Below, piece by piece: positions 4,695-64,000 of a stretch of 64,000 nucleotides of DNA (position 1 is the stretch's first letter; every line of letters begins with the position of its first letter). A program made the translations under genes and the position numbers. Origin of the DNA: an uncultured Verrucomicrobia subdivision 3 bacterium. Lineage in GTDB: Bacteria > Verrucomicrobiota > Verrucomicrobiia > Limisphaerales > UBA11358. The stretch is from assembly GCA_903842235.1 (NCBI GenBank), contig CAIMLG010000059.1, forward strand, positions 14,125 to 78,124, read 5' to 3'. The notes under the pieces are model-generated. The model did no database searches. It was not told where the DNA came from and saw nothing but the letters and a program-made list of their open reading frames with translations.

Positions 4695-4886
4695 CGGCGA
4701 TAGGCTTGTGACACTGACCGCGCTCGACCTTGATGGGCACCGGCAATTTGCCCGCGACCATTCACTGGGCGCCTTCACTGAGCTGGTGCAGCGCCATGGG
4801 GATCCCGTCCATTCTGCCCGCTTGGTGGAGGCAATCGGCTGCACCAGCGGGAGTTGGCAAGGTGAAAATAGGTGACGGAGTTCAAC

Positions 4887-4909
4887 GTCCCCAGTCCAAG
4901 GTCCAAAGT
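4887..4909. repeat. short YCCAAAG-type heptad remnant
   Basis: gtccccagtccaaggtccaaagt; same unit as at 57470, 63852 and inside the 84-bp repeats. Confidence 0.55.
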
Positions 4910-5012
4910 TGAGACAGTTTGGTGGCGGGAAGCTGCGGCGCAGCTGGTTTATATTCACCGGCCAGATCCGCGTCAAGGACGGGACTGCCCCCTGGCCGAT
5001 TCCACCCCTGAA

Positions 5013-25287: not shown

Positions 25288-26976
25288 TCAGGGCACCAGC
25301 CAAGCGCGATAAAATTGGCGGCCGGAGCTGATCGGCACCGGATTGGTGTAGAGCCAACTACTCGCGGTCAACGTATTCGTGGCCAGCGGCAGCCAGGTCT
25401 GCAAGTCCGCCGAAGTTTGCAGCACGATCGTTTGCCCGGAAACGCCATTCACGCCAAGGCGGAATTGGGTGCTGCTCAATTTGGCCGCCCCTAAAACCGG
25501 CGGCTGAGAACTGGCAGCGACGGTCAGCAGTTCGGGCGTGTAAAGATAGCGCACGTGTTGGCCATCGCTGATGCGGGCATAAACGGCGTAGGTGCCCGGC
25601 GCCATATTCGTCGTGGGCAAGCCCAGGTTGGCATAATAGTTCACCGCCGCCGTGCCCGAAGCGGGGGGCGACAAGGTCAGCACGGCGACGCTGTTGGAAT
25701 TGCAGGGATTGAAGTCCCGGTCGAAATAGATTTGGGCCGTTAAATTGGAGGCGCCGCCGTATTGATAATACAAAGTGGCGCCGACCGAATTGCCCGGCAC
25801 CACCGGATTGGTCCCATTGAGGTTGAACCGGAGGAGGTTCGGCCAGGTGCCGTTGTTGACGGGCAAGGCCGTGCGATTCGGCGTGGAACTGCCGGCGCCC
25901 AAATCCCAATATTGATTGTAGCCGTCGCGAAGAGCCGGGTAGCCGCCCCCTTCGGGCTGGAGCGTATTGGTGCGATTGCCGTGACCGATCAGGCTGTAAA
26001 GAAAGCCCGTGTTCGTCCCGGCAGCCTCATAGGCCGTCCACCAAGCTGAGCGCTCCGTACCGGTGAGGGAAGGATTCGAGGGATCGCCATCACTCGTGGG
26101 AACGGCAAAATCCAGCGTGCCGTGATACCAGAGGTGCACATTCGAATGTTTGGGCGAAACCGAGCTGGTATTGCCGTAACCCCCCGAAAGCGTGTGCAAC
26201 TGCCGATTGTAGGCGCCATTGACCCACTCGCCATCGGGATCCAAAAACACCCCGAGATTCTGCCAATAATTATCGTGGTAGAGCACATTGGCGTAGGTGT
26301 TCGCGGCGGAGGCATCGGTCGGCATGAACAATTCAGAATTCCCATCATTGTTTAAGGGATGCGGATCCAGCGTGGTCAAATGATCCACCCAAACCCCATT
26401 CGTGCCTAGGAGCCGGCTGATTTCATTGATAAGCGAACCGCCGCGACTGTGGCCGATCAGGTGCAGGGGAAACTCCACCAGCGCGTGGCCGCCCAAGTCG
26501 GCAATCGTGTTGGTCTGCAGAAGGAGCGTGCTGGCTGCCGCCGCCACTTTGTAGGTGCTGATATTATACGCGGCGCCCCCGCCGGCCATCTGGCTCCAGT
26601 CCAGTTTGACAATGATTTCCCCGGAATCCGTATTGGTGGGACTGGTTCCGGCGACGCGCGACCACTGGTAAAAAATACTGGTGCCGTCGGTGGTCAGCGT
26701 CAATTTGTAGGTGGTGGAATTGGTGCCCGGAAACCCCGGATAATTGGTGAGGCGACTGGCCAGGCCCGAAATCCAGCCATCGACATTCCCACCGAAGCCG
26801 TGAGTGATAATGGTCACGCCGGCGGCTTTGGCAGCCGGGGAGATAAAAATGCTGAGAACCAGCAGCGCCACCCAACATAACTTTTTTCGGGCCCGCCCAA
26901 GGGAAGCCGGACGGGCGGGGACGGGACAGCGCGGGCGTCCAACCCGAAGGGCTTTTGTTGGCATGGTCGGCATCAT
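25288..26976 (-). CDS. secreted alpha/beta-hydrolase (lipase-like) with C-terminal W...FYR module
   Basis: TM/signal [21 protein letters not shown]; ITHGFGGN; nucleophile elbow LIGHSRGG; ends ...[11 protein letters not shown]...[10 protein letters not shown]. First ATG 26976 (track TTG 27015). Confidence 0.8.
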
Positions 26977-29228: not shown

Positions 29229-29234
29229 GCCGGC

Positions 29235-29269
29235 AGTTTCGAGTTTCGAGTTTCAAGTTTCAAGTTTTG
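29235..29269. repeat. five tandem 7-bp units AGTTTCG/AGTTTCA
   Basis: agtttcg agtttcg agtttca agtttca agttttg, starting 7 nt upstream of the pta start codon. Position checked against track ORF 29051..29317. Confidence 0.9.
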
Positions 29270-30140: not shown

Positions 30141-30404
30141 TTGTAAAAGAAAGACGCCGCACATGACCAACTGGCAAATCTCGGAAGCCACCCACCGCGG
30201 CTTGGAGCAAAACTAAAAACCATTGCAACGGCAACCCGCATCATAAACGTCGGAGCAGAATACGTCTCTCACTTACGAAGTCACTACGGTTGCTCTGTCA
30301 AGAAGGACTCTGGCGTGACGATTACGCTCATCCCGCTCAAAATCCAATGATGGGCGAGTGACCCGTCCAAGACGGTTTAACTGTTCACCGGAAAGGGGGT
30401 GGAT

Positions 30405-30488
30405 TCTTGCGCCAAGACGGTCAGGGGCTTGTTTTCCGTCTCCAAAGAGGTCTGAATCCACCCAAACGCCAAAACCCAAGCCAGACGG
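30405..30488 (+). repeat. 84-bp direct repeat, copy A
   Basis: tcttgcgccaagacggtcaggggcttgttttccgtctccaaagaggtctgaatccacccaaacgccaaaacccaagccagacgg. It differs from copy B by 4 substitutions and 2 single-base indels. Confidence 0.9.
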
Positions 30489-30491
30489 TCA

Positions 30492-31700
30492 TCATTCGCT
30501 GATAATTTGTGGTCCTATCCGTCTGCGCCAGCAGGTGATGATAATAAACATCAACGCAAGAGGCACCGCTAAGAAATAAATCCAATTGCGGCGCGGCGAA
30601 GGTAGATTGTCGTCAAAACTTTTGTAAACGCGAATCCCGTCATCCTGATTGGCAACGTAAGCGTATCCACCCGAAACCGTGAGCCGTTTGGAGAATCCGC
30701 CGTAATTTGTGCTGGTGTGTCCAACGGAGATGGGATTGGTGGGGCATGAAATATCATAGGCCCACACCCCATCTTGGAAATTTGCGATATATGCATGATG
30801 GCCAGAAACTGCCACCCCGTATGCGGAGCCGTCAATATGAGGATTTTTACCTTTGATTTGTGAATGAGCCTCGGCAAAAGTTTCGCGTGGGGAACTATTG
30901 TTAATGTGGCCGATGCCGGCGGGTTTTGTTGGGTTAGAAACATCGAATATACTGAAGCCGTAAAAATTGTTTGCGACATAGGCATATTTTCCAGCGACGA
31001 CCACCCCCCGCGGATAACCTGTATCTTTTAAATGGCCGACTTTGGTTGGATTGGCTGGATTGGAAATGTCATATATCCGTAGCCCGTCGTAATCATTAGC
31101 CAAATAAACATAGTTTTCGGAGACCGTTGCATTGAGCGCTGTGCCGCCGTCGTTCAAATGGGCAACACGTTTAGGTTTGGCCGGATTGGAAACATCGTAG
31201 ATTCGTAAACCGTCATTGTAGTTGGCTAGAAACGCATATTGCGCTCCCGTTTTACGTTTTCCAAAAAGCTTATCACTTGGAATTTTTGCAGTGCCGGAAA
31301 CCGCAATTCCAAAAGAAGCGGCCATCGCGATTTCAGGTGCGTGCCCAACGCACACAGGTCGGGTTGGATCGGAGACATCGTAAATCCTCATCCCATCATT
31401 ACTGTTGGCGACATAGGCATAATCACCACAATTAGCAACGCCCATCGCGCCGCCTCCATTTTCAGAATTATTGGTGTGTCCGACGGAGACGAGATTGGTC
31501 GGATTTGTAATGTCAAATATGCGGAGCCCATCACTGCCGTTGGCGGCAAAAAGATAATGTCCAGCCACGACCACATCGCAGACATGTTTGGAAGCATCAC
31601 CGTAGAAACCGGCGCATTCCATATTGGTCTGGGCAGGTAGAAGGTGAGGAGCTATCAGCAATCCCAAGCCGAGACTCACTACAAACGAAAATCTTTTCAT
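30492..31700 (-). CDS. LVIVD-repeat beta-propeller protein, signal peptide plus C-terminal TM anchor
   Basis: ATG 31700 gives MKRFSFVVSLGLGLLIAPHLLPAQ. At least 7 repeats of Y(A/V)(Y/F)(V/L)AN..DG(L/M)RI(Y/F)D(I/V)S(N/D)P. C-terminal IYFLAVPLALMFIIITCW followed by RRR. Confidence 0.8.
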   Translation of the reverse strand: MKRFSFVVSLGLGLLIAPHLLPAQTNMECAGFYGDASKHVCDVVVAGHYLFAANGSDGLRIFDITNPTNLVSVGHTNNSENGGGAMGVANCGDYAYVANSNDGMRIYDVSDPTRPVCVGHAPEIAMAASFGIAVSGTAKIPSDKLFGKRKTGAQYAFLANYNDGLRIYDVSNPAKPKRVAHLNDGGTALNATVSENYVYLANDYDGLRIYDISNPANPTKVGHLKDTGYPRGVVVAGKYAYVANNFYGFSIFDVSNPTKPAGIGHINNSSPRETFAEAHSQIKGKNPHIDGSAYGVAVSGHHAYIANFQDGVWAYDISCPTNPISVGHTSTNYGGFSKRLTVSGGYAYVANQDDGIRVYKSFDDNLPSPRRNWIYFLAVPLALMFIIITCWRRRIGPQIISE

Positions 31701-31785
31701 CCGCAATTGATTTTGCTGTGAAACGGGTGCATTGCCACTCAAAAATGAAGTTTTCCAAATCGGCCCTGGCAAATATGATGGGCGA

Positions 31786-32874
31786 GTGAACTTCACTTGC
31801 CGTCAAAAGATATTTCAGGCGTTCCTCATTGGAACCATTTTGTTGAGTGGAGATTTTTTGGCCAAAGCCGATAATCAAATTGTCGCGTGGGGCCAAAATG
31901 CAGGGTTTGGAGAAGTTTCTGTTCCCGCCGGTCTCACGAACATCGTCGCCATTGTGGCGGGATTGCGCCATAACATGGCATTAAAAAATGATGGAACAGT
32001 CACTACGTGGGGGGCTTGTCTTCAAGGGAATGGCATATTTAACGTCGCGACACCAGAAGGTTTGTCAAATGTAACAGCCATCGCTGCCGGTGTATGGCAT
32101 AGCCTCGCCCTGCGCGCAGACGGAACAGTTGCGGCATGGGGCTATAATGGTGACGGCGAAACTGATGTGCCGCCTGACGCGACTAATATCGTCGCCATTG
32201 CTTGCGGAAGTTCTCACAGTCTAGCGCTCAAATCAGACGGGAAAATTTTATGTTGGGGAGCGGAAGGCGCCAGCCACGACAAAATTGTTTCTGTGCCTAG
32301 CGACCTGTCGAACATTGTTAAAATTGCGGCTGGCGGTGGGTATAGCGTAGCCATGAGGTCGAATGGCACGGTGAGAATTTGGGGTGACGCCCCAAATTGG
32401 CTGACGAATGTGCCGTCGGACGCAACCAATATCGTTGAGATAACGGCAGGAGGCCAATACTGTTTGGCGTTAAAATCTGATGGTCGGGCTGTAGGCTGGG
32501 GGGCGGATGTGAATGGAAGCTCGGTTGCACCTCCAAAGGATTTAGCCAACGTCATCGCAATCGGAGCGGGAGAACAACACCGTCTCGCTCTTAAATCTGA
32601 TGGAACCGTGGTCGCTTGGGGGCGCGGTTGGGGCGGAACGACCGTGATGCCCAATGGTCTGACAAATGTAATTGCAATCGCAGTAGGCGGCTATCACAGC
32701 CTAGCTTTGAAAGGCCAAAAAGAAATACTCCACCATGCGAAAGCGTGGCCTGTTTCACCGACGCCTCACAACCGCGTAAGTCTGCTGTTTTGGTTGTCGC
32801 TTGTGGTTTGTCTGTTCATTTTTGGGTGGATGATTTCACGTTTATTCCGGCAAAGGGGAAAGCCAGTTTGTTAA
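31786..32874 (+). CDS. RCC1-repeat protein, signal peptide plus C-terminal TM anchor
   Basis: About 7 repeats of ..AIAAG..HSLALKSDGTV..WG. GTG 31786 gives signal peptide MNFTCRQKIFQAFLIGTILLSGDFLAKA (track TTG 31732 is also possible; there is no in-frame ATG). C-terminal LLFWLSLVVCLFIFGWMI followed by RLFRQRGK. Confidence 0.8.
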   Translation: MNFTCRQKIFQAFLIGTILLSGDFLAKADNQIVAWGQNAGFGEVSVPAGLTNIVAIVAGLRHNMALKNDGTVTTWGACLQGNGIFNVATPEGLSNVTAIAAGVWHSLALRADGTVAAWGYNGDGETDVPPDATNIVAIACGSSHSLALKSDGKILCWGAEGASHDKIVSVPSDLSNIVKIAAGGGYSVAMRSNGTVRIWGDAPNWLTNVPSDATNIVEITAGGQYCLALKSDGRAVGWGADVNGSSVAPPKDLANVIAIGAGEQHRLALKSDGTVVAWGRGWGGTTVMPNGLTNVIAIAVGGYHSLALKGQKEILHHAKAWPVSPTPHNRVSLLFWLSLVVCLFIFGWMISRLFRQRGKPVC

Positions 32875-32882
32875 GACCATTT

Positions 32883-32966
32883 TCTTGCGCCAGACGACCA
32901 GGGGCGTGTTTTCCGTCCCCAAAGAGGTCTGAATCCACCCAAAACGCCAAAACCCAAGCCAGACGG
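32883..32966 (+). repeat. 84-bp direct repeat, copy B
   Basis: tcttgcgccagacgaccaggggcgtgttttccgtccccaaagaggtctgaatccacccaaaacgccaaaacccaagccagacgg; begins 9 nt after the RCC1 stop. Confidence 0.9.
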
Positions 32967-33134: not shown

Positions 33135-33211
33135 TGGTGCGCGCGACGGGAGTTGAACCCATAACCTTCGGCTTCGGAGACCGACGCTCTATCCAGTTGA
33201 GCTACGCGCGC
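33135..33211 (-). tRNA. tRNA-Arg (anticodon CCG)
   Basis: 77 nt including encoded CCA, folded by hand. Acceptor GCGCGCG/CGCGCGC. D-arm GCTC-AACTGGATA-GAGC. Anticodon arm TCGGT-CTCCGAA-GCCGA. T-arm ATGGG-TTCAACT-CCCGT. Confidence 0.9.
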
Positions 33212-57462: not shown

Positions 57463-58109
57463 TGAAAAGTCCAAAGCCCAAAGCCCAAAACCCAAAGCCC
57501 GCGCCGCCGCTGCTGATGCTCATCTCCGCGCCGTCCGGCGGGGGCAAGACGACGCTATGTCAGATGCTGCTGGAGGCGCAACCGGACATGACGCGCGCCA
57601 TCACCTGCACCACGCGCCCGCCGCGCCCCGGCGAACAGGACGGGGTGGATTATCATTTTTTCGACGCGACGGAATTTCTCAAGCGGCTGCAGGCGGGGAA
57701 TTTTCTGGAGCATGCCACGGTCTATGGCAACAGCTACGGCATCTTGAAATCGGAACTGCTCGGCAAGCTGCGCGAGGGCAAGGATGTGCTGCTGAACGTG
57801 GATGTGCAGGGCGCGGCAACGATCCGCGAACAGGCGAAAACGGAGCCGGAACTGCACCGGGCGCTGGTGACGATCTTCCTGACGCCGCCGTCGGTGGCGG
57901 TGCTGGAGCAGCGGTTACGCAAGCGCGGGGCCGATGCGGAAGCGGTCATCCAAAAGCGGCTGGCGGTGGCGCGGCAGGAGATTTCGCAGTGGAAGAACTT
58001 TGATTACCTGCTGATCAGCGGCGACCGGAACGAAGATTTGCGACAGGCACGGGCGATTCTGGAGGCGGAAAAATTGCGCTCGGCGCGCTCGGCCGCGCCG
58101 GAGATATGA
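57459..58109 (+). CDS. gmk: guanylate kinase
   Basis: P-loop ISAPSGGGKTTL and TTRPPRPGEQDGVDYHF. ATG 57459 overlaps the yicC TGA (ATGA). An alternative ATG at 57516 would exclude the heptad repeat. Confidence 0.9.
   Translation: MMKSPKPKAQNPKPAPPLLMLISAPSGGGKTTLCQMLLEAQPDMTRAITCTTRPPRPGEQDGVDYHFFDATEFLKRLQAGNFLEHATVYGNSYGILKSELLGKLREGKDVLLNVDVQGAATIREQAKTEPELHRALVTIFLTPPSVAVLEQRLRKRGADAEAVIQKRLAVARQEISQWKNFDYLLISGDRNEDLRQARAILEAEKLRSARSAAPEI
57470..57500 (+). repeat. four tandem 7-bp YCCAAAR units at the gmk 5' end
   Basis: tccaaag cccaaag cccaaaa cccaaag ccc, translated as SPKPKAQNPKP in the gmk frame. Confidence 0.9.
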
Positions 58110-63384: not shown

Positions 63385-64000
63385 ATGTTCACCGTTGCCG
63401 ACCTCTTTGACCTGACGCAAACCGAACACGCCGCGCTCTTTGACGGCTGCACCCACGCTTGGGAGGCGCTGAAGAAAATCGAGCCTTACCTCGCCGCCAC
63501 AGTTGCCAAACAGAATCCGGCGCCGCGCTTTCCCGGCGCGACCATTGGCGACCGCGTGATCCTTGGCGCGGGCACCGTGGTGGAACCCGGCGCCCTGATC
63601 AAAGGTCCGGCCATCATTGGGAAAAACTGCCAGATCCGGCACAACGCCTACCTCCGCGAGAATGTCATCATCGGCGACGGCTGCGTGGTCGGCAATTCGA
63701 GCGAGCTGAAAAATGCGCTGCTGTTCAACGGCGCGCAGGTGCCGCATTACAATTATGTGGGCGACTCCATCCTTGGCCACAAGGCGCACCTCGGCGCGGG
63801 CGTGATTTGCTCCAACCTCAAGTCGCTACCCGGGAATGTCGCGATTACCGTTCCAAGTCCAAAGTCCGAGGTCCAAAGTCCAAAGTCTGAAAACCCAACG
63901 GCGGGCGCCGCCAGACTTGCGCCTTTGGCCCTTGGACTTTGGTCTATTTTAGACACGGGCCTGCGCAAGTTTGGCGCCCTCATTGGCGACGGCGCGGAAG
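63385..64000 (+). CDS. left-handed beta-helix (hexapeptide-repeat) transferase-like protein, 5' partial (runs off the window)
   Basis: I translated frame +1 from ATG 63385: MFTVADLFDLTQTEHAALFDG...IGDRVILGAGTVVEPGALIKGPAIIGKNCQIRHNAYLRENVIIGDGCVVGNSSELKNALLFNGAQVPHYNYVGDSILGHKAHLGAGVICSNLK...DTGLRKFGALIGDGAE. There is no stop before 64000, which is why it is absent from the track. Confidence 0.8.
   Translation, partial: MFTVADLFDLTQTEHAALFDGCTHAWEALKKIEPYLAATVAKQNPAPRFPGATIGDRVILGAGTVVEPGALIKGPAIIGKNCQIRHNAYLRENVIIGDGCVVGNSSELKNALLFNGAQVPHYNYVGDSILGHKAHLGAGVICSNLKSLPGNVAITVPSPKSEVQSPKSENPTAGAARLAPLALGLWSILDTGLRKFGALIGDGAE
63852..63944 (+). repeat. imperfect palindromic heptad-repeat element lying in frame inside the transferase CDS
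   Basis: Left arm tccaag tccaaag tccgagg tccaaag tccaaag tctg; 22-nt loop; right arm cagacttgcgcctttggcccttggactttggt. About 26 of 32 arm positions pair. Confidence 0.8.

Follow-up and report, generated by a model that had tools for sequence, protein, structure and literature searches.

How does a hairpin built of seven-nucleotide repeats come to lie, in frame, inside a protein-coding gene? The question is raised by a 64,000-nt stretch of DNA, hereafter the window, from an uncultured Verrucomicrobia subdivision 3 bacterium (GenBank assembly GCA_903842235.1, contig CAIMLG010000059.1), in which the gene for a hexapeptide-repeat protein is crossed near the window end by an element whose arms consist of GTCCAAA-type heptamers. 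A first-pass annotation of the same DNA had read this element as a mobile palindrome of the repetitive extragenic palindrome (REP) or miniature inverted-repeat transposable element (MITE) kind and had implied that the insertion was recent. In this study, we argue with moderate confidence for another answer, namely that it is a long-resident or recurrently renewed heptanucleotide quasi-palindrome which evolves at the level of DNA, is tolerated by the protein as a loop and needs no function of its own. Coordinates below are window positions; L-numbers denote related loci that were fetched for comparison and P-numbers denote database proteins. The parts of the element and of its host gene are the following.

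63385 to 64000, plus strand: the 5' 205 codons of the hexapeptide-repeat protein, whose gene runs past the window end (full length 256 aa)
63841 to 63852, plus strand: left-hand remnant of the host loop, codons for AITV, which correspond to TxxV in the ancestral TVEVDGVPF
63853 to 63948, plus strand: the whole element, by an nhmmer end-to-end match (model positions 1-96, E 6.9e-23) and by alignment A3
63850 to 63889, plus strand: left arm, about five tandem GTCCAAA-type heptamers (GTTCCAA GTCCAAA GTCCGAG GTCCAAA GTCCAAA GTCTG), translated PSPKSEVQSPKS
63890 to 63911, plus strand: 22-nt GC-rich spacer AAAACCCAACGGCGGGCGCCGC with a 4-bp mini-hairpin of its own, translated ENPTAGAA
63912 to 63945, plus strand: right arm, decayed complementary heptamers (CAGACTT GCGCCTT TGGCCCT TGGACTT TGGTCT), translated RLAPLALGLWS
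63946 to 63951, plus strand: right-hand remnant of the host loop, codons for IL; the invariant DTGLRKFGA comes next

The frame that starts at ATG 63385 continues through the element without a stop and reads ...SNLKSLPGNVAITVPSPKSEVQSPKSENPTAGAARLAPLALGLWSILDTGLRKFGALIGDGAE, and the insert-spanning peptide of this allele includes SPKSEVQSPKSENPTAGAAR. Tandem Repeats Finder reports a period of 7 with 4.7 copies and 84% matches at 63855-63887, and the inverted-repeat arms (63856-63889 and 63912-63945) are 34 nt long, complementary at 28 of 34 positions (82%) and 22 nt apart; the window has no longer or better inverted repeat within 100 nt. The open frame and the imperfect arms around a 22-nt loop had been described in the first-pass annotation, and both descriptions stand; its figure of about 93 nt of heptads fits the element as a whole, the heptad run itself taking up only some 33-40 nt of the left arm. 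The folding that it had proposed as a check also bears it out: the 121 nt around the element fold as RNA to -49.7 kcal/mol against -34.0 ± 3.8 kcal/mol in 200 dinucleotide shuffles, none of which equals it (z = -4.1). A 17-mer of (GTCCAAA)2.4, with up to two mismatches allowed, has six matches in the window, at 4894, at 57469 and within 63850-63887, where shuffles give 0.01. Both GTCCAAA and its complement TTTGGAC are free of stops in every frame, and the total length is a multiple of three. The notion that heptamers were selected to be stop-free was considered and rejected: the arrays that we collected (see below) are open on at least one strand in 66 of 67 cases and on both strands in 38 of 67, and random genomic 7-mers in 95% and 68%, respectively, so that there is no enrichment for stop-free heptamers.

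The host protein is a stand-alone left-handed beta-helix (LbH; Pfam Hexapep, 1.2e-16) of the DapH/DapD/GlmU-related 'NDP-sugar pyrophosphorylase family' class. Among solved structures the LbH domain of Sulfolobus ST0452 comes closest to it (2ggo/5z09, E 8e-20), and in that alignment query residues 156-188 lie opposite just 5 residues of 2ggo. Between PGN[VI] and DTGLRKFGA, about 90 orthologous Verrucomicrobial loci have exactly 9 residues (e.g. TVEVDGVPF) and a Clostridia outgroup has 8-12; the window has 37. The ancestral D-G-x(-P) turn codons are absent from the window allele when its loop is compared with those of orthologues: the insert substitutes about three codons of the D-G-x turn, for a net gain of 28 codons (84 nt). 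Judged from these loop lengths, the short loop is ancestral and the hairpin segment is extra relative to the ancestral gene, in agreement with what had first been proposed, and we found neither orthologues that conserve the roughly 31 residues in genomes free of the repeat family nor a disruption of the gene downstream. In AlphaFold models the flanking strands span residues 151-157 and 186-194 and the insert has no secondary structure, with a predicted local distance difference test (pLDDT) score mostly below 50, which weakly suggests that it forms the disordered tip of a beta-arm. If translated as the frame reads, the segment would be a low-complexity and probably disordered loop.

A trivial explanation would be that the reading frame is an artefact of assembly or belongs to a gene that is broken beyond the window. 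The window ends 49 nt past the element and is by itself not decisive on this point. Nevertheless, an identical full-length product is on record: protein P0001, from an 85.4-kb contig, has 256 aa, is 100% identical over all 205 window codons and can be aligned with orthologues as far as their C-termini, which rules out the pseudogene option. Moreover, alleles with an insert recur in many independent assemblies (8 contigs for P0005, 7 for P0006 and 13 for P0070), and as far as sequence data go we consider an artefact of either kind scarcely credible.

The main evidence comes from orthologues, which were surveyed among the 120 closest proteins. About 45 of these have 16-37 residues at the insert site, and all 13 hairpin-bearing orthologues for which DNA was obtained have a left heptamer array, a GC-rich spacer and a complementary array, with folds of -33 to -49 kcal/mol. 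With dozens of orthologues from other species having a hairpin at this codon, a private insertion is not tenable. The heptamer is not the same throughout: the GTCCAAA type is found in the window and in L161-L165 and L168, a GGTTCAG/GGTTCAA type in L085, L087 and L167, and an AGTTGCA/AGTTGAA type in L083, L117 and L166. Another locus, L001, has a one-armed array of five CAACCAT units that adds 7 residues, equal to three units. In a plain MAFFT alignment (A3), from which the hairpin for the covariation test was drawn, the 13 elements all lie in register and GT is invariant in each seventh column. Paired cells make up 91.8% of this alignment versus 79.4% in shuffles, none of 500 shuffles reaching the observed value, and changes on both sides of a pair occur in 39 cells versus 13.4 expected (again 0 of 500 shuffles), with such changes in 10 of the 17 pairs. 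When the partner is slid by 1-3 columns, pairing falls to 20-52.5%. Duplexes between arms of the same type have a mean of about -38 kcal/mol and those between arms of different types about -22 kcal/mol. Therefore, the two arms of the hairpin have changed their heptamer sequence together.

Covariation of this kind is what a functional mRNA hairpin would produce, and a structure that tunes translation, folding pauses, RNase cleavage or the coupling of transcription to translation could account for the stable folds in 13 of 13 orthologues, for compensatory changes in 10 of 17 pairs where controls are far lower, and for the short T-run (ATTTT) that follows the stem in many copies. The T-run, however, is accounted for by conserved I/N-L/F-D codons. 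Among arm mismatches, sense-strand G.U pairs number 12, against 37 A.C mismatches and 73 transversions, and this lack of a G.U surplus points to DNA rather than to mRNA as the level at which pairing is maintained. Most orthologues, even those 89-95% identical, are entirely without the element, which points in the same direction and away from both mRNA and peptide. A like architecture is found in unrelated genes and in intergenic DNA, and neither Rfam nor a terminator scan gives support: no family matches the element at the gathering threshold in a scan of the window, hits at E<=1 over 63700-64000 are only sub-threshold miRNA noise, and the hairpin is not called as an intrinsic terminator, the terminator-like count of the region being at shuffle level. 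We consider a functional mRNA hairpin improbable.

It might also be supposed that the protein is what matters, either through a 28-residue adaptive loop near the active site or trimer interface or through an on/off switch that works by slippage in steps of 7 nt. The PDB alignment places the insert in a loop region of the LbH, where loops are generally known to aid substrate binding, and heptad runs in open reading frames (ORFs) are classic phase-variation devices, as in NeuO, a phase-variable O-acetyltransferase. On the other hand, the peptides are unlike between heptamer types (SPKSKVQS, PGSEFSVQ and SCQLPVEG) while nucleotide pairing persists, which points to DNA and not to the peptide as the level that is conserved. 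AlphaFold predicts no structure for the insert, and on/off switching would be implausible for the like arrays in the essential genes gmk, leuS, priA and miaA. A role of this sort seems to us very unlikely.

With regard to age, the GTCCAAA-type inserts are 72-86% identical between loci, and their host genes are 70-94% identical overall and 58-86% at third codon positions. This similar divergence of insert and host gene indicates long residence within the GTCCAAA type and does not agree with the recent arrival first implied. Two observations suggest how the element may have grown and been lost. Inserted alleles have a right flank, CCC GGA ACG, that complements the left flank CGT TCC, which suggests that the palindrome grew outward over the DGxP codons and replaced them. 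The L169 allele (TVVVPGTIM; 'GTT CCC GGT ACG ATT') is obtained from the L087 allele when all that lies between the two CCCGG copies of the latter is removed, and may be read as a pointer to a loss footprint of the element; the CCCGG pair in GGTTCAG-type copies is part of the stem itself.

The element of the window is, as far as its sequence architecture indicates, a member of a wider class: period-7 arrays and hairpins are found throughout Verrucomicrobiota genomes, coding regions included, and in this respect the first-pass annotation was right to suspect a dispersed repeat. In the window and the fetched loci (2.04 Mb), with a threshold of at least 4 copies and at least 85% identity, there are 69 arrays of period 7, compared with 6, 15, 0, 4, 1 and 0 of periods 5, 6, 8, 9, 10 and 11, respectively, and the 0.39 Mb of loci from outside the Verrucomicrobia, Clostridia among them, contain no arrays of period 7. 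After overlaps were merged, 67 arrays remained for counts of location and partners: 30 have an inverted partner array at most 600 nt away, and 44 lie deep inside long open frames, versus 78% of random positions. About 16 further arrays lie within 30 codons of an ORF 5' end. The arrays in other loci, with housekeeping-gene names judged from translations or gene tables, include those listed here.

L163 3111-3147 (KSKVQSPKSK), L012 11224-11255 (KSEAGSRKPE) and L146 11787-11818 (KSESRIRNPES): one-armed in-frame arrays at the same codon position of miaA
L003 4622-4651 and L142 4162-4198: one-armed in-frame arrays in priA just before the Walker A motif
L162 1600-1637 and L165 1745-1785: one-armed in-frame arrays in thiD
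L041 and L046: in-frame arrays in a cysS-like gene
L148 14847-14929 and L158 13092-13174: full in-frame hairpins in leuS
L143 2553-2633 and 3975-4135: full in-frame hairpins in priA
L162 1850-1960: full in-frame hairpin in thiD

At shared sites of this kind (miaA, priA, thiD, gmk and the cysS-like gene), orthologues often hold different heptamers. Within the window there are only three heptad arrays, the element included, by the heptamer, profile and inverted-repeat searches, and no second full-length copy; these searches and the period-7 survey give the following features besides the element.

57465 to 57501, plus strand: one-armed array of five AAAGTCC/AAAGCCC units, a heptamer class shared with the element, at the 5' end of gmk, in frame directly after the yicC-gmk ATGA overlap
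4884 to 4914, plus strand: short GTCCAAG/GTCCAAA remnant (profile E 0.047) with no convincing ORF across it
29233 to 29269, plus strand: AGTTTCR x4.7 array in a divergent intergenic region, ending about 5 nt from the ATG of a minus-strand pta-like gene

The heptad matches reported earlier in non-coding DNA are real at 4894 and 57469, but the array at 57470 is in frame with gmk. Slightly different units occupy the gmk N-terminus at the syntenic sites L162 3164-3198 and L165 3243-3282 (AAGTCCC in L165). By inspection, a loose GTYSARN pattern covers about half of the heptamers in the arrays (GTCCAAA, GTTGAAG, GTTGAGG, GTTCAAA, GTTGGAT and others), and this pattern together with the invariant GT may hint that the arrays share an origin or a preference for certain sequences. 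Some inverted arrays are widely spaced, 300-450 nt apart versus the usual 20-60 or so (L087 987-1024/1468-1500 and L148 16624-16665/16957-16994), both arrays of the L148 pair lying within the leuS ORF; such pairs may be the two ends of something or separate arrays.

A rival idea is that the element is a mobile, non-autonomous hairpin of the REPIN or MITE type, seamlessly and repeatedly inserted at a preferred target in this loop and in other genes by a hairpin-recognising transposase (e.g. of the Y1/HUH kind), the orthologue copies being independent hits by the family of each genome. An nhmmer profile built from the seven same-site GTCCAAA-type elements, the window copy among them, matches full-length hairpins in other genes of other genomes, namely the priA C-terminal hairpin of L143 (E 6e-11) and the leuS hairpins of L148 and L158 (E 5e-8), with two weaker matches. 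The loops have GC-rich motifs in common (GCGGACGAT, for example, occurs both in the LbH element of L161 and in the leuS element of L148), and the GTCCAAA type occurs in both deep host subfamilies with flanks that stay subfamily-specific. The presence, absence or type of the insert also varies among hosts that are 94-96% identical outside it, as between P0004 and P0037 (95.9%), P0066 and P0092 (95.4%) and P0010 and P0051 (95.0%), pairs that differ either in heptamer type or in having the insert versus the canonical DGxP loop. However, by direct reading there is no GTAG/CTAC or CGTC/GACG tag at the element ends (GTTCCAAGTCC... and ...GGACTTTGGTCT) or any other conserved terminal tag, and by inspection of the junctions no flanking direct repeat that would represent a target-site duplication, host codons having been replaced and not duplicated; the REP or MITE membership proposed at first finds no support here. 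Inserted alleles are without the DGxP codons and are not simple interruptions of them, the many one-armed arrays are unexplained by a hairpin transposon, inserts of one type are about as diverged as the host gene and not less so, and the window has no second full copy. We regard such a mobile element as unlikely.

We therefore return to a quasi-palindrome that evolves at the DNA level, for which the following mechanism may be envisaged. Slippage in a 7-nt register would homogenise the units within an arm, and intrastrand pairing with template switching (quasi-palindrome correction, a process established in E. coli genetics), or conversion of one arm by the other, would maintain complementarity between arms. 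The same pairing and template-switching process might let the palindrome extend over flanking codons, and short direct repeats at the base of the stem could be the end points of deletions that eliminate it. Selection would merely filter for an open, in-frame gene and a tolerable loop; the database alleles are all in frame, as expected from the manner in which they were collected. A bolder version, which we put forward tentatively and think rather less than probable, is that the heptad hairpins of Verrucomicrobiota form a class not yet described, compatible with coding and self-renewing, a free-living counterpart of the palindromic elements of Rickettsia, whose members are actively kept and propagated in essential genes and repeatedly remodel loops at fixed sites. 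In that case the activity might lie in correction templated by the hairpin, in an enzyme specific to heptads or hairpins, or in transposition with a site preference, and a dedicated molecular machine, not generic slippage, would account for the GTYSARN unit and the strict 7-nt period.

Several points weigh against a tolerated quasi-palindrome without function. Strong covariation is equally expected of a selected structure. The near-identical hosts that differ in heptamer type, or in insert versus canonical loop, do not follow from simple vertical descent with loss, and in the tree inserted alleles are scattered among canonical ones, both being present in both deep subfamilies (KISN and ICSN). 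Since a lost insert cannot regenerate DGxP, this distribution calls for recurrent gain at a hot spot, for allele exchange or for a weakly resolved tree; a neighbour-joining tree was set aside as a record of gain and loss, its tips being about 10-15 residues apart and unable to separate recurrent gain from allele exchange. Slippage and template switching would act here by analogy with what is known of quasi-palindromes, translation of the segment is deduced from the open frame, the AlphaFold models are poor (mean pLDDT 56-58 in two runs with 32 and 113 sequences), and our view of this genome is that of the 64-kb window.

Two other features of the window deserve mention. Direct repeats of about 86 nt (~86% identical; 30403-30490 and 32881-32966) lie just 3' of the two genes of a 2.4-kb island (30492-32874) that has a low GC content (49%), encodes an LVIVD-repeat protein (minus strand) and an RCC1-repeat protein (plus strand), is located beside tRNA-Arg(CCG) (33135-33211) and may be a small acquired island. 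These repeats, given as 84 bp in the first-pass annotation and thought there to share blocks with the hairpin, were rejected as its relatives: local alignment with both copies and strands is at chance level, its scores being matched by 29 of 300 and 73 of 300 dinucleotide shuffles. At 25796-25893, ARAGORN calls a 'tRNA-???' with a two-base anticodon; Rfam gives nothing there at the gathering threshold, and the call is therefore probably false.

In-frame selfish palindromes are mainly known from Rickettsia, and heptads mainly as intergenic repeats; this case unites both in free-living soil and freshwater bacteria, with a non-triplet repeat that is able to live inside essential genes. At one codon in orthologues, the sequence of the hairpin turns over while its arms stay complementary, which provides a natural record of quasi-palindrome evolution and of the creation of new protein loops. 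It also calls for caution on the part of annotators and of those who search for RNA structures, as covariation within a coding sequence can stem from repeat dynamics and not from functional RNA. What makes the locus valuable above all is that hairpins at one site covary across orthologues and that in-frame heptad arrays are so widespread among the housekeeping genes of Verrucomicrobia.

It remains to place the element among known systems. NeuO of E. coli K1, an LbH acetyltransferase with a translated poly-psi heptanucleotide repeat that serves as a phase-variation switch, resembles it in that a heptanucleotide repeat is translated in a hexapeptide-repeat (LbH) acyltransferase gene, three units amounting to 7 codons. 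The NeuO repeat is, however, a one-armed 5' array and phase switch in a phage-borne gene, whereas the present element is internal, forms a hairpin and belongs to a chromosomal gene for which nothing points to switching.

The Rickettsia palindromic elements (RPEs; Ogata et al. 2000, 2002) are in-frame palindromes within genes and a hallmark of Rickettsia (summarised in PMC10969869). RPEs, like the elements described here, are palindromic repeats of about 100-150 bp, located in frame in unrelated metabolic and housekeeping genes, they add a peptide compatible with the protein fold, and they occur in many genes and are common to related species. Like them, the element is a long-hairpin palindrome inserted in frame in an intact gene where most orthologues are without it. 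Given the heptad build, no sequence homology to RPE-1 to RPE-10 would be expected. In contrast to RPEs, which by the same description form families of fixed consensus with a conserved peptide in obligate intracellular Rickettsia, the arms here are tandem 7-nt units that turn over in sequence and yet go on pairing. There is no conserved peptide, arrays with a single arm are found beside hairpins, and the hosts are free-living Verrucomicrobiota.

Heptanucleotide repeats in excess are documented as the short tandemly repeated repetitive (STRR) sequences of cyanobacteria and the GGGAATC repeat of Xanthomonas and Nostoc (PMC4692102) and as the TAACTGA repeat of Beggiatoaceae (PMC4679880), and the published repeats are reported to be intergenic and under-represented in coding DNA (PMC4692102, PMC4679880). 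The Verrucomicrobial arrays likewise consist of tandem, head-to-tail 7-nt units in few to tens of copies, with period 7 over-represented in the clade; some form inverted pairs able to make stem-loops, the sequence varies between close relatives at one locus, and some lie directly upstream of start codons, as at 29233 and 57465 of the window and in Beggiatoaceae (PMC4679880). Unlike the intergenic heptamers, two thirds of the Verrucomicrobial arrays are deep in long ORFs and in frame, essential genes included, and the hairpin arms covary across species.

REPs, finally, are units defined by a GTAG or CGTC tag, and intragenic examples have been listed, including some from the Verrucomicrobium Opitutus terrae (PMC3733652) and others in genes for replication, repair and tRNA synthetases (PMC3733652; PMC3116915). 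As in REPs and REPINs, two inverted units stand around a spacer in a hairpin of about 100 nt. REPs are, however, palindromes of 20-40 bp that carry the tag, are linked to REP-associated tyrosine transposases (RAYTs) and are mostly extragenic; the element is untagged and intragenic, has arms of tandem heptamers, is not known to have a RAYT and is likewise without the target-site duplication that marks a MITE. In our search of the literature we came upon no account of such arrays or hairpins within the coding regions of Verrucomicrobia, which is no proof of novelty. Taken together, the element shares traits with RPEs, with heptad simple sequence repeats, with REPs and with NeuO, but fits none of them.

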